A DNA stretch of 64,000 nt from Desulfobaccales bacterium (GCA_041648175.1 JBAZPO010000006.1:83317-147316); one strand, 5' to 3'; shown: positions 3,688 to 32,680, numbered from the stretch's first letter. Numbers and translations are program-made. The notes: generated by a model from the sequence alone, not told the origin.

Positions 3688-5934
3688 ATGATGCGCCGCC
3701 TGGCCGCTTTTGTGAAATCGCCCATCGCCCGCTGGATCACCGGCGTCACCCTGCTGATGGCTTGCCTGCTCGTTTGGCGTCCCACCTTCACCGAGTTTAT
3801 CGAACTCAAGCTCTACGACCTCAAGTTCCGGTTTCGGGGAGCCCGTGCGCCCGGCAAAGATGTAGTCATCGTGGCTATCGACGACGACAGTGTGAAGACG
3901 GTGGGGCGCTGGCCCTGGTCCCGGGAGAACATGGCCCGGCTGCTTACCGGTCTGAAAACGGCCGGTCCCCGGGTCATAGCCTTGGACATCGTCTTTGCCG
4001 AAAAAGAAGAGACGGTGGCCTACCAGGCCATCAGGAATCTCTGCGATGAGATCGCCCGGCGGGGCGCCTCGCCGGAAGTGCTGGCTCTGCTGGAGGCCGA
4101 GAAAAACAAAGCCGACGTGGACCGGCTGCTGGCCAAAGTCCTGTCCCAAGGTCCTCCCACCATTCTGGGGTTCTTTTTCGAGAGTGTCGGCGGCAAGGCT
4201 GGGGGAGTACAGCCGGAACAGCTCATGGGCGGCACTTTCCTCAAGGCTTCCACCTATAACGTGGTGCGCCTCCTGGATACCCAGCCTTCCCAGGTTCCCC
4301 TGGTAAGCGCCACCGGAATTGAGCGCAATCTGCCGGAAATCACCGAGGCCGCGGCGGGCGACGGCTATTTCAACATGATTCCTGATCCCGACGGCACGGT
4401 GCGCTGGTTTCCCATGAGCATCCTGTATGGCGGAGAGTTCTTCGCCCCTCTGACCCTGGTGACCCTGTCCCATTACCAAGACAAAGCCCCCATGGCCATT
4501 ACCCTGTCCCATTGGGGAGTGGAGGGGATTCGCCTGGGACGCCGCCAGGTGCCGGTGGACCGCTATGGCCGGCTGCTCATCAATTTTTTGGGCCCCGCCG
4601 GCCTCATCCCCACCTATTCCGCCGCCGCCGTCATGAACGGCAGCTTGCCGGCCGGGGTCTTAAAGGACAAGATCGTCCTGGTGGGGGCCACGGCCGTGGG
4701 TATCTACGATCTCCGGGTCACCCCTTTCTCCGGGACTTTTCCCGGGGTGGAGATCCAGGCCACCGCCATGGACAATCTGCTGCATGGCAATTTCATCAGC
4801 ACCCCTCCCTTGGCGCTGGGTATCATGCTGCTGATTCTGGTGGTACTGGCCATCCTGCTGGGTCTGGTGCTGCCCCGGCTCTCCGCTGTCCTGTCCTTCA
4901 TCTTCACCCTCATCGTCCTGGCAAGCTACGTGGGCCTCAACTACTACCTATTCAGCCGCCAGGGTATCCAGTTGGATCTCTTCTATCCCCAGGCCCTCAT
5001 TGTCCTGGTCTTTCTGGGAGTGACCTCGCAACGGTTCCTGGCGGAGGAGGAGGAGCGGAAACGTATCCGCAAGGCCTTTGAATCTTATGTGGCTCCCACC
5101 GTCGTCCAGGAGATGCTCAAGCACCCCGAGCAACTGCGCCTGGGAGGGGAGCGCCGGGAGATCACTATCCTGTTCACCGACATCCGGGGCTTTACCACCA
5201 TGTCGGAAAAACTCGACCCCCAAGCCCTGGTGACTCTGCTCCACGACTTCCTCAATCCCATGAGCAACATCATCATCAACCAGGGAGGCACCATCGACAA
5301 GTACATGGGGGACGCCATCATGGCCCTCTTCGGTGCCCCCCTCGCTCAACCGGATCACCCCCACCTTGCTTGCCGGGCCGCCCTGGAAATGGTGTCCAGC
5401 CTGGCGGCCTTGAACCAGGATTGGGCCGCTCAGGGCCGTCCACCTTTGCGGGTCGGGGTGGGGGTCAACACCGGCCCGGTAGCCGTAGGCAACATGGGGT
5501 CCGACCGTCTCTTCGACTATACCGCCATCGGCGACAATGTGAATTTGGCCTCCCGCCTGGAGGGGCTCAACAAATACTACGGCACCTCTATCCTGATCAG
5601 CCAAGCCACTGCTGCAAGCTTAGGAAACGACTTCATTCTCAAAGACGTGGATCGGGTGCGGGTTAAGGGGAAAGCCCAGGCGGCCCGCATCTATGCGCTG
5701 TTAGGAGAAGGTGAACCCGGTCCGGAACTGGCCCGGTATCTGGACCTCTACCACCGGGCCCTGGCCTTCTTCCGGGAAGGCCGCTTCGCCGAGAGTCTGA
5801 CTGCTTTTGGGCAGGTCCTGGAGGTGCGCCCCGGGGATGCCGCCTGCCAACGCTACGCCGCCCTGGCCCAAAAGTACCTGGAAAACCCGCCGGGTCCCGA
5901 CTGGGAAGCCGTGACGGTCATGGATGGCAAATAG
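3688..5934 (+). CDS. CHASE2 sensor domain-containing adenylate/guanylate cyclase (class III)
   Basis: N-terminal TM segment, a periplasmic CHASE2-like region (VVIVAIDDDSVKTVGRWPWSRENMARLL), and a cluster of TM helices. The cyclase core is ITILFTDIRGFTTMSE...KYMGDAIMALFGAP...GDNVNLASRLEG. Confidence 0.85.
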   Translation: MMRRLAAFVKSPIARWITGVTLLMACLLVWRPTFTEFIELKLYDLKFRFRGARAPGKDVVIVAIDDDSVKTVGRWPWSRENMARLLTGLKTAGPRVIALDIVFAEKEETVAYQAIRNLCDEIARRGASPEVLALLEAEKNKADVDRLLAKVLSQGPPTILGFFFESVGGKAGGVQPEQLMGGTFLKASTYNVVRLLDTQPSQVPLVSATGIERNLPEITEAAAGDGYFNMIPDPDGTVRWFPMSILYGGEFFAPLTLVTLSHYQDKAPMAITLSHWGVEGIRLGRRQVPVDRYGRLLINFLGPAGLIPTYSAAAVMNGSLPAGVLKDKIVLVGATAVGIYDLRVTPFSGTFPGVEIQATAMDNLLHGNFISTPPLALGIMLLILVVLAILLGLVLPRLSAVLSFIFTLIVLASYVGLNYYLFSRQGIQLDLFYPQALIVLVFLGVTSQRFLAEEEERKRIRKAFESYVAPTVVQEMLKHPEQLRLGGERREITILFTDIRGFTTMSEKLDPQALVTLLHDFLNPMSNIIINQGGTIDKYMGDAIMALFGAPLAQPDHPHLACRAALEMVSSLAALNQDWAAQGRPPLRVGVGVNTGPVAVGNMGSDRLFDYTAIGDNVNLASRLEGLNKYYGTSILISQATAASLGNDFILKDVDRVRVKGKAQAARIYALLGEGEPGPELARYLDLYHRALAFFREGRFAESLTAFGQVLEVRPGDAACQRYAALAQKYLENPPGPDWEAVTVMDGK

Positions 5935-5935
5935 G

Positions 5936-6631
5936 TCAGGAAGTCACAATGGCGTTCAGAACACCCCCCAGGATGGTGGAATAAAAGAAAAACGAAATCA
6001 CGCTGTGGATGAGAACCATCCGCCGTTGGACTTCGTTGGTTACGTTGACATCACTCATGGCATAGGTCAAACCCACGGTAAACGAGACATAGAGGAAGTC
6101 CAGATAGGTAGGCTCCGGCGACCCGGGAAAGGTAAAGCCCTGGCGCATGCCCCCGGCAAAGAGGCGGCCGTGGCGATCCGTATCTTCATAATACAGCCGG
6201 GCGTAATGCTGTCCCACGGCCGTGTGCAGGAGAAACCAGGACATGACCACGGCCCAGACGCTCAAGGCCACCAGGCGGCGGGCGTGGGTCGGATGCTCAT
6301 TGCCCACCGAGGTGAGGATGACGCCCACGCTGATATTGCCCAGAAGGGCCACCAGGATCAGCACGATCAGCAGAAAGACCCGGTTAGGCTCATCCCGGGA
6401 GACCCTTTGTTTGGTCATGGGGCCGTCGGCCTGAAAAATTACTATTCCCAGCAAGCCCAGGTAGATGTTCAAGGCCAGTATCCAGCCCAGGAGAAAGGCG
6501 ACCTTCCCACTAAACCCGAACCGTTCCCAGCAGATGAGCGCCGCCACCGCTCCCAGGAAGAGCGCCAGCACCGCCCGGTACTGGTCATGCAACTCCCAGG
6601 CGAAATGACCAACCCGCTTTTTGAACGTCAT
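5936..6631 (-). CDS. DUF1345-like integral membrane protein
   Basis: Multi-TM protein with HTAVGQHYARLYYE...GFTFPGSPEPTYLDFLYVSFTVGLTYAMSDVNV, a pattern I associate with DUF1345. Confidence 0.65.
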   Translation of the reverse strand: MTFKKRVGHFAWELHDQYRAVLALFLGAVAALICWERFGFSGKVAFLLGWILALNIYLGLLGIVIFQADGPMTKQRVSRDEPNRVFLLIVLILVALLGNISVGVILTSVGNEHPTHARRLVALSVWAVVMSWFLLHTAVGQHYARLYYEDTDRHGRLFAGGMRQGFTFPGSPEPTYLDFLYVSFTVGLTYAMSDVNVTNEVQRRMVLIHSVISFFFYSTILGGVLNAIVTS

Positions 6632-31344: not shown

Positions 31345-31803
31345 ATGTTTAAAGAATTCAAAGAGTTCGCCATGCACGGCAGCGTCGTGGACATGGCCGT
31401 GGGCATCATCATCGGAGCGGCCTTCGGAGCCGTGGTCAAGTCCCTGGTGGCCGATATCATCATGCCGCCCATCGGCCTGCTCCTGGGCAATGTGGATTTC
31501 ACCAACCTGTTCATCCTCCTGAAGGCCGGAAAGGTGGCGGGCCCCTATGCCTCCCTGGCCGCGGCCCAAACCGCGGGGGCAGTCACCCTCAATATCGGGA
31601 TGTTCATCAACACTATCGTCAGTTTTGTTATCGTGGCCTATGCCGTATTCCTGGTCATCCGGGGAATTAACCGGCTGCAACGGGCCCCGGAAGCGCCTCC
31701 GGCCGCTGCCACTAAGGAGTGCCCCCATTGCGCCTCGGAGATCCCCCTCAAGGCCACCCGGTGCCCCCATTGCACCTCGGAATTGGGGGCCGCCTCGGCC
31801 TGA
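31345..31803 (+). CDS. mscL: large-conductance mechanosensitive channel MscL with C-terminal zinc-ribbon extension
   Basis: [44 protein letters not shown]. The tail is [24 protein letters not shown]. Confidence 0.85.
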
Positions 31804-31831: not shown

Positions 31832-32164
31832 ATGTCTTCCATAAGAGAGAGTTATTGCGGTCTCTGTGAGCAGTGTCAGTTGGGCAGCCCGGATTTTCAG
31901 GAAGCCGTGGGCAAGGTTAAGACCTATATGGACCAGTTACCGGTGCACTGGCAGCGGCAGTGTATTAACGAAGCGCAGGACTTTCCTTTGTTGGAGTTCC
32001 GCCAGGGGCTGGACTGGTTTTCAGGTAGGGTTGACTGTCCCGGCTGCAAGGACATGGGCGGTCTGGAGCACTGCGGCATCCGTGACTGTGCCACAGAACG
32101 TCAGCATGACTACTGCTATGAATGTCTGGACCACGACTCCTGCAGGCACCTAATCTTTGTTTAA
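31832..32164 (+). CDS. Cys-rich DUF3795-like protein
   Basis: 110 aa. YCGLCEQCQ near the N-terminus plus CPGC, C..C and CYEC motifs. AAGGAG RBS. Confidence 0.55.
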   Translation: MSSIRESYCGLCEQCQLGSPDFQEAVGKVKTYMDQLPVHWQRQCINEAQDFPLLEFRQGLDWFSGRVDCPGCKDMGGLEHCGIRDCATERQHDYCYECLDHDSCRHLIFV

Positions 32165-32346
32165 GGGTTCCCGGCTGAGTCACAGGATGCTTGCCTCCAC
32201 CTTCAGAGGTTGGCGCGGAGGTATGTGAAACCTCCGGGCCGGCCCTGGATTCTTGGATATTTCTCCTTATCTTTATCAAAAGCCTAGAGCCACTTTCACA
32301 AAAGATCCCGCGCCTTGTAAAATCTTAGGCGCTAAGGAGAGAATTC

Positions 32347-32673
32347 GTGGATGAACCTCGCCGTGTCACCCCGCAAGAGATCTATCCAAAAGTCCAGTCA
32401 GGAGAAACCCTCCTGGTCTGCGCTTATGACGATGACGCCAAATTCCGGCGCCTTCGACTGGAGGGCGCCATCTCTTTGCCTGAATTCAAGTCCCTCGTTC
32501 CTTCCCTGCCTAAAAACGGGGAAATCGTATTCTATTGCGCCTGACCCAATGAAAACAGTGCGGCCGGTCAGGCAGCCGGGTTAATCGAGATGGGCTATCT
32601 AAACGCTAAGGCGCTCAAAGGGGGCGTGGAGAGCTGGAAACAAGCGGGTTACGCCTTGGTGGGTGAGAAGTAG
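32347..32673 (+). CDS. single-domain rhodanese-like sulfurtransferase with in-frame TGA (candidate selenocysteine at codon 66)
   Basis: GTG start 8 nt after AAGGAG. The sequence reads ...GEIVFYCA-TGA-PNENSAAGQAAGLIEMGYLNAKALKGGVESWKQAGYALVGEK-TAG. Only the read-through product is a complete rhodanese domain. Confidence 0.55.
32560..32576 (+). promoter_or_regulatory. candidate bacterial SECIS hairpin for the rhodanese TGA
   Basis: GC(G)GCC-GGUCA-GGC(A)GC forms five Watson-Crick pairs with one internal mismatch. The apical GGU starts about 25 nt after the U of UGA. Confidence 0.35.
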
Positions 32674-32680
32674 GAGGTAC

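Follow-up and report, generated by a model that had tools for sequence, protein, structure and literature searches.

A rhodanese-domain gene interrupted by an in-frame TGA in a Desulfobaccales bacterium as a probable member of the predicted CxU selenoprotein family

Rhodanese-related sulfurtransferases of a CxU form, in which selenocysteine (Sec, U) stands two residues past a cysteine, are listed among bacterial selenoproteins in two reviews (PMC9312934, PMC13188914), both of which credit Zhang and Gladyshev 2005, give TKB26178.1 as the example accession, and present the form as predicted only. In a 2007 study of Olavius symbionts (PMC1976440), eight such genes were reported, no Cys homologue was present in that dataset, and a new UxU form was described in the delta symbionts, which are also an example of the large predicted selenoproteomes of Desulfobacterota. 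The initial annotation of the DNA analyzed here had stated, correctly in the light of these three publications, that rhodanese-related sulfurtransferases are listed bacterial selenoproteins. That DNA is a stretch of 64,000 nucleotides from a Desulfobaccales bacterium (GCA_041648175.1 JBAZPO010000006.1:83317-147316; referred to as the window), in which a rhodanese-domain gene at 32347-32673 (+) is interrupted by an in-frame TGA at 32542-32544. Like the CxU family of the literature, which is mainly deltaproteobacterial and carries a bacterial selenocysteine insertion sequence (bSECIS) directly downstream of the Sec codon, the window gene encodes a single rhodanese domain (COG0607/PF00581) with a putative Sec two residues past a Cys, and we found no essential difference between the two. 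From the sequence and its comparison with homologues, we estimate at about nine in ten the probability that Sec is inserted at this TGA under the direction of a bSECIS, and that 32347-32673 encodes, as one gene, a selenoprotein of 108 residues with a rhodanese fold.

The gene starts with a GTG at 32347, 8 nt downstream of a Shine-Dalgarno-like AGGAG (32334-32338), and the position of this start is common to the homologues, which begin with M-x-E-P-x-R-V in their alignment. The frame runs through ...GEIVFYCA to the TGA and continues beyond it for 42 sense codons (PNENSAAGQAAGLIEMGYLNAKALKGGVESWKQAGYALVGEK) up to a TAG at 32671-32673, which we consider the true terminator on the basis of the translation and of the loss of constraint in the same frame beyond the family's terminators (see below). 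The translated product has the active-site motif FYC64-A-U66-P, in which Cys64 is encoded by a TGC (32536-32538) and U66 would correspond to the TGA, and a further cysteine, Cys25 (32419-32421), lies in the motif LVCAY (LLVCAY) and occupies a column that is invariant in both Sec and Cys forms. The Pfam Rhodanese model matched the joined 108-aa product at residues 30-100 (E 1.2e-7; 32.5 bits, cut-off 22.2), whereas the 65-aa fragment ending at the TGA, searched alone, gave no Pfam match, so that only the joined product is a complete rhodanese, as had been claimed in the initial annotation. The sequence also agreed with its description of an open reading frame (ORF) that is interrupted by TGA and continues in the same frame to the TAG, and the ribosome-binding site (AGGAGG, 32672-32677) and ATG (32681/32684) of the next gene indeed come after the TAG and not after the TGA.

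The evidence that carries the Sec interpretation comes from comparison of 83 genes, i.e. the window gene and 82 homologous loci, mostly from the genomes of distinct species. A scan of one genome per species had revealed a relative in 242 genomes, from which the best 80 loci were kept. Since the loci were seeded by an N-terminal peptide pattern, their retrieval was independent of the TGA codon. The read-through column was TGA in all 83 genes, without a single TAA or TAG, whereas the same genes terminate with TAA in 31 cases, TAG in 30, and TGA in 22. The column two codons upstream, occupied by Cys64 in the window, contained TGC (47), TGT (25), or again TGA (11), which corresponds to C-x-U in 72 genes and U-x-U in 11. 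In each of the 83 genes the frame was kept beyond the TGA, with 35-52 open codons and a conserved peptide of the form ...[ST]AAGQAA...GY.N.KAL.GGV..W..AGY. Furthermore, the Nei-Gojobori ratio of nonsynonymous to synonymous differences (pN/pS) was 0.30 over the 40 codons before the TGA and 0.42 over the 35 codons after it, and 0.95 over the 35 codons past the true stop. The frame behind the TGA is therefore under purifying selection, and orthologues that end at this stop and trail an unconserved tail, an outcome that would have refuted the proposal of the initial annotation, were not what we found. The U-x-U genes (L017, L028, L030, L038, L047, L053, L055, L059, L067, L069, and L082; locus positions ~6190-6200) have two TGAs six nucleotides apart, both located 5' of one hairpin. 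On a neighbour-joining tree of weak resolution they occupy five or more separate places, which suggests that Cys and Sec have replaced each other more than once in the catalytic column.

The second line of evidence is an RNA element within the coding region. In the window, a core hairpin GCGGCC-GGUCA-GGCAGC (32560-32576) begins 15 nt after the UGA, with its loop beginning 21 nt after it, and its codons specify A-A-G-Q-A-A; the extended stem-loop, spanning approximately 32554-32585 with a lower stem AAC/GUU, folds in ViennaRNA with -8.3 to -8.6 kcal/mol. A hairpin GCNGCC-GGUCN-GGCNGC occurs 15 nt past the UGA in nearly all of the 83 genes. In an ungapped alignment of 69 DNA columns in codon register, the 5-bp core was paired in 93-100% of the sequences, and the pair that joins the wobble positions of two Ala codons was U-A in 56 genes, C-G in 12, G-C in 5, U-G in 4, and A-U in 1, with other, unpaired combinations in 5. 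The covariation score amounted to 0.217, as compared with 0.125 +/- 0.012 for shuffles (0/500 as high) and 0.129 for the best slid register. Constraint at the RNA level was also visible in codon choice, as the loop Gly codon was GGT in 69 of 70 Gly codons, in contrast to a control Gly codon of the same gene (GGA 33, GGG 19, GGC 16, GGT 15), and in synonymous divergence (pS), which was reduced downstream of the UGA (0.67 vs 0.83). The AAGQA peptide encoded by the hairpin is conserved in the Sec forms and variable in most Cys forms. According to the published bSECIS model (PMC13188914, Fig. 2A), the apical loop has 3-9 nt with G at positions 1-2, the stem 4-16 bp, the distance from UGA to loop 16-37 nt, and the minimum free energy (MFE) is ≤ -7.5 kcal/mol. 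The window copy lies within these limits with its 5-nt loop GGUCA, its spacing of 21 nt, and the energy of the extended fold; its stem has six positions, the third of which is a G.A mismatch, and the stem is perfect in most homologues. The hairpin with a GGUCA loop at a SECIS-like distance that had been noticed in the initial annotation thus exists, albeit with one mismatch, and the fold is present, conserved, and covarying across the family. An Rfam search at the hairpin retrieved no curated RNA family. The closest described element is the SECIS of the E. coli fdhF type, likewise a stem-loop inside the coding region directly past the UGA and with a small apical loop. The loop of the fdhF SECIS begins with GGU(C), as does that of the window. 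The family described here differs in that its consensus has no obvious bulged U, its loop starts 21 nt after the UGA, and its stem is built from Ala-Ala-Gly-Gln-Ala-Ala codons.

In protein databases, the products of such genes are mostly truncated. A word-indexed search of 5.8 billion proteins yielded 142 homologues, 120 of them listed, and about 100 of these 120 were exactly 65 aa long, with a handful at 105-110 aa that have Trp at the TGA column. Reading the underlying DNA in L001 (84-404) and L002 (996-1313) revealed that this Trp is a TGA translated under genetic code 4, and we attribute the false Trp of the full-length entries (P0001-P0004, P0006, P0007, P0047, P0121, P0139, and others) to code 4 gene calling on short metagenome contigs. 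When 1.84 billion representative proteins were searched exhaustively with a profile, 4442 matched, and the top 150 of these were classified: 44 were full-length C-x-C proteins with Cys at the TGA column (FYC-x-C-P, e.g., FYCACPHDETA), 22 had Ser at that column, 31 were cut at the TGA, and 10 were code-4 calls (7 CxW, 3 WxW). The alignment of homologues proposed in the initial annotation therefore places Cys opposite the TGA in 44 of these 150 matches, and such full-length relatives provide the Sec/Cys pair that is the classical criterion for a selenoprotein.

That the organism decodes UGA as Sec is supported by a second gene of the window, fdhA, located on the minus strand (40413-37666), which encodes a 915-aa Sec-containing NAD-type formate dehydrogenase alpha subunit with N-terminal 2Fe-2S/4Fe-4S domains. 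It was located by a scan for long frames open across TGA, and its TGA (39300-39298) stands between ...NNIDHCART and HAPTVAGL, a canonical fdhA CARxUH site. Of the two statements of the initial annotation on this point, that a clear Sec-containing fdhA is present was thus borne out, and that UGA is decoded as Sec is supported by this gene. A hairpin GUCGCC-GGGCU-GGCGAC starts 12 nt after the fdhA UGA (fold -20.9 kcal/mol) and has the architecture of the rhodanese hairpin, one codon nearer to the UGA. ORF lists split this gene into pieces of 370 and 528 aa. Another ORF, 3688-5934, was considered as fdhA and rejected, being a CHASE2/adenylate-cyclase-like protein. As TGA is the stop codon of 12 among 40 long non-overlapping ORFs of the window, and of the 22 family genes mentioned above, the genetic code is standard.

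Several results weigh against the proposed Sec insertion or limit what can be built on it. We found in the literature no experimental characterisation and no evidence of selenium incorporation for any member of the family. The genes selA, selB, selC, and selD are absent from the 64-kb window, where Rfam and ARAGORN detected only a tRNA-Arg and no tRNA-Sec, and, because no sel genes lie within it, the competence for Sec is read from fdhA by itself. The window protein scored 60.6 bits against its best NCBIfam match, NF041203 (rhodanese_LYCAU, "rhodanese-related (seleno)protein", equivalog, 126 positions), and did not reach the cut-off of 115. Clustering of neighbouring genes over the 83 loci returned no conserved partner, and the domains fused to Cys-form relatives (CBS, DUF2383, cupin, an ABC fragment) did not point to a function; as neither source singles out a substrate, the chemistry discussed below is our inference. 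Finally, the window copy of the hairpin is weak when considered in isolation. Its core has an MFE, calculated with a 1x1 mismatch, of -6.2 kcal/mol, as compared with a family median of -9.2 kcal/mol, since the consensus stem carries the G.A mismatch (a forced-pair energy of -9.5 kcal/mol was discarded because the G.A position makes that value meaningless), and the RNA downstream of the UGA folds no better than shuffled sequences (z +0.8 and z -0.16). Moreover, for an isolated 27-nt segment, ViennaRNA favoured a shifted register, CCGGU-CAGGCA-GCCGG (32564-32579; -7.8 kcal/mol). As 19% of all TGA triplets in the window have at least 42 open codons behind them and the RNA fold is no better than that of shuffles, the window sequence alone does not go beyond chance, and the statistical weight of the case comes entirely from the comparison with the 82 homologous loci. 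Single-sequence folding on its own would have argued wrongly against a SECIS.

The shifted register deserves separate consideration, as it would leave Sec insertion intact and assign the SelB element of this lineage to CCGGU-CAGGCA-GCCGG instead of the consensus hairpin. The competing structure is generated by a downstream GCCGG, and, besides its favourable energy in the short segment, it draws support from the fact that the G.A mismatch of the consensus stem is also found in the two closest metagenome relatives, L084 and L085. However, it breaks the loop-G rule, the register that is conserved and covarying across the 83 genes is the consensus one, and when the flanks are included the MFE structure adopts that register. 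The mismatched position itself (32562 and 32574 in the window) is the covarying pair of two Ala wobble positions, restored to G.U in L083 and to G-C in L003. Its occurrence in two independent metagenome relatives indicates a lineage trait and not a sequencing error, and it looks like an intermediate in a compensatory substitution. We therefore regard use of the shifted hairpin as improbable.

Two further explanations dispense with Sec altogether. According to one of them, the TGA is a genuine stop, the gene product has 65 residues, and the 42 downstream codons are untranslated or the decayed remnant of a pseudogene or split gene. The predominance of 65-aa entries among the database homologues, the open frame expected by chance behind nearly one TGA in five, and the thermodynamically unexceptional hairpin of the window would all fit such a view, yet the fragment so produced has no Pfam match and would be without one beta-strand and two helices of the fold, including the closing one. 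Purifying selection has conserved the downstream frame in every one of the 83 genes across several phyla, the codon is always TGA, and the rare full-length entries in databases result from translating this TGA as Trp, which leaves the explanation with hardly any probability. The other one holds that the UGA is read through without Sec, either by near-cognate Trp or Cys insertion or under code 4 or 25, and that the hairpin only slows termination. Downstream hairpins that stimulate read-through do exist in other systems, and some gene callers did place Trp at this position (P0001-P0007, P0047). Nevertheless, TGA is an ordinary terminator both in the window and in the family, homologues have Cys rather than Trp or Gly at the TGA column, the hairpin combines a SelB-type GGU loop and spacing with a resemblance to the fdhA SECIS of the same genome, and the carriers belong mostly to Desulfobacterota, with their large predicted selenoproteomes (PMC1976440), so that we consider read-through of this kind very unlikely. 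The evidence thus favours the Sec reading, and the remaining text proceeds from a predicted 108-residue selenoprotein.

With respect to described families, the window gene is an unannotated member of the known predicted selenoprotein family and falls into a sub-clade, termed FYCAU here after its active-site motif, that is sister to the LYCAU proteins of NF041203. The two groups have in common the signature YC-x-U-P-x-E-x-[ST]-S-A-G with its C-A-U active-site motif, and a C-terminal GG..W..AGY. The LYC[AT]U-type proteins possess N-terminal extensions and a canonical V-D-x-R strand and cover the whole length of the model with 87-94 bits, whereas the FYCAU clade has no N-terminal extension, carries LVCAY with its invariant Cys at the site of D-x-R, and its members mostly match only the C-terminal two-thirds of the model. 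Eight other clade members scored 49-73 bits, including both Olavius symbiont copies; these copies, from Delta 1 and Delta 4 (L051, L052), were among the homologue loci and are 56-58% identical to the window protein. Sec was written as Cys for this scoring, at a cost of maybe a few bits and not 50. The scores below the cut-off may explain why these genes are routinely annotated as 65-aa proteins.

The fold was analyzed using an AlphaFold2 model of a C-x-C homologue, P0128, which is 47% identical to the window protein (predicted local distance difference test [pLDDT] 95.2, predicted template modelling score [pTM] 0.88). A Foldseek search with this model retrieved the single-domain rhodaneses GlpE (TM 0.80), YgaP, Alr3790, BH2092, and TSTD1. 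The part behind the Sec position contributes a beta-strand and two helices, one of 15 residues and the other the last of the fold, and Cys64-Ala-Sec66-Pro is located at the rhodanese active site, where the central beta-strand passes into the next helix. The initial annotation had placed the TGA two residues after the canonical catalytic Cys. This placement was supported by profile comparisons, as hhalign set Cys64 on Cys65 of GlpE (probability 94%) and hmmsearch alignments with both 6mxv domains and YnjE set it on the canonical catalytic Cys, and also by the strand boundary, since the predicted strand ends at Tyr63 and Cys64 is the first residue past it. Ungapped alignments of single sequences disagreed, matching Sec66 with the catalytic Cys in GlpE and in domain 2 of 6mxv, a placement that is less likely given the strand end at Tyr63; Sec66 was accordingly rejected as the canonical catalytic residue in favour of Cys64, which lies in the Cys/Sec-variable column.

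The active site nonetheless departs from that of classical sulfurtransferases. GlpE of E. coli (PDB 1gmx), the prototype single-domain thiosulfate sulfurtransferase, has the same fold, with a catalytic Cys after the central strand and a C-terminal GG.eAW motif, but its loop comprises six residues, C-Y-H-G-N-S, without a second Cys or Sec. The loop of the window protein, C-A-U-P-N-E-N-S, is two residues longer, which appears as a gap in both the hhalign and hmmsearch alignments, so the six-residue CX4[RST] pattern is not matched. In addition, the Asp of the rhodanese D-x-R motif is replaced by Cys25: LLVCAYD stands opposite VLVDIRD of GlpE (D25-I-R27) in hhalign, i.e., C-A-Y instead of D-x-R. 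A closer counterpart of the loop is found in BH2092 of Bacillus halodurans (PDB 3nhv, 3o3w), a structural-genomics rhodanese of unknown function, whose active-site region aligns without gaps (YCWGPACNGA vs YCAUPNENSA), which indicates the same extended loop length and the same position of the Pro. BH2092, however, has no Sec, carries its second Cys at +5 and not at +2, and is only about 24% identical.

Translation of this gene may be pictured as follows, judging from the sequence and its conservation. At the UGA, the downstream hairpin with its GGUCA loop would act as a bacterial SECIS and recruit SelB.GTP.Sec-tRNA(Sec), whereupon Sec would be inserted and translation would run on to the TAG at 32671. 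The resulting thiol/selenol pair could form a reversible Cys64-S-Se-Sec66 bond or carry a persulfide or selenopersulfide, and the protein might then serve as a redox-active carrier of sulfur or selenium, or as a reductase, rather than as a plain thiosulfate sulfurtransferase. The invariant Cys25 may lie near the active site and is a candidate for a third redox-active residue. A bolder idea, which we put forward tentatively and regard as rather doubtful, is that the FYCAU clade constitutes a distinct selenoenzyme with a new S-Se (or Se-Se) redox relay and a substrate unlike those of classical rhodaneses. The features that prompt it are the +2 Sec invariant in the 83 genes, the invariant third Cys, the loop longer by two residues, and the use of a second Sec in place of the catalytic Cys on about five branches of the weakly resolved neighbour-joining tree. 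If it were true, the protein could, for instance, reduce or carry polysulfide, selenium, or arsenic species in anaerobic organisms.

The surroundings of the gene vary. The window neighbours include DUF3795, MscL, rubredoxin, a TlpA-like redoxin, and ModABC. A Cys-rich DUF3795 protein (31832-32164, +) and MscL (31345-31803, +) lie directly 5' of the rhodanese gene, and this MscL-DUF3795-rhodanese order recurs in the closest relatives only (L083; MscL alone in L084 and L085). The gene directly 3' (32681/32684-33400, +) encodes a protein of about 238 aa with an N-terminal membrane anchor and no Pfam match; its family adjoins the rhodanese gene on the 3' side in eight loci, all close relatives, and a similar unannotated gene of about 239 aa is found 3' of the rhodanese in L085 and in one further contig. 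Over the 83 loci, the commonest neighbours were MscL (12), QueF-like (11), a TlpA-like redoxin (9), and low-molecular-weight protein tyrosine phosphatase (LMW-PTP) ArsC (8), each in close relatives only. The LMW-PTP-type arsenate reductase (ArsC)-like gene lies on the other strand, some 0.8 kb upstream, in its 8 loci (4754-5260, minus strand, in L041, and 7 others), and it offers a weak hint at a link to arsenic/thiol redox chemistry that is not conserved family-wide.

Judging from the scan of one genome per species, at least 242 species-level genomes contain the clade, whose carriers extend beyond Desulfobacterota to Brocadia and Jettenia (anammox Planctomycetota), Methylomirabilota, Acidobacteriota, and Nitrospirota. 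Cultured carriers include Geomesophilobacter sediminis (L021) and 'Bacterium M3-1' (L080). Some genomes contain two paralogues (L005 and L077 on one contig, L029 and L054, L060 and L071). In L054 (1325-1639), an early TAA follows ...GGGVEGWKKSG, 35 codons past Sec, and the hairpin is degraded to GCAGCC-GGUCA-GUCAGC; as the same metagenome-assembled genome has an intact second copy, L029, the L054 copy may be a decaying paralogue.

Because its members are cut to 65 aa, the clade is largely hidden from annotation. The window gene and about 100 database homologues have been deposited as 65-residue proteins named "hypothetical protein", "rhodanese-related sulfurtransferase", or "ArsR family transcriptional regulator"; the last name, borne by the 65-aa entries P0024 and P0066 in both NCBI and UniRef, was probably propagated from ArsR-rhodanese fusion proteins. 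The false Trp residues of the full-length entries could in turn mislead alignments and Cys/Sec searches. The curated model of the sister group falls short of the FYCAU clade, and with a dedicated one, a widespread selenoprotein would be recovered in the genomes of at least 242 species. For the organism itself, the gene would be the second selenoprotein in this genome region and would not alter what is known about Sec decoding, although it would provide a very clean natural example of a SECIS within a coding region, its stem kept by covariation between synonymous codon positions. In practice, the finding would be of use mainly for correcting annotation, and what interest remains for science concerns the chemistry at the C-x-U / U-x-U / Cys25 site.

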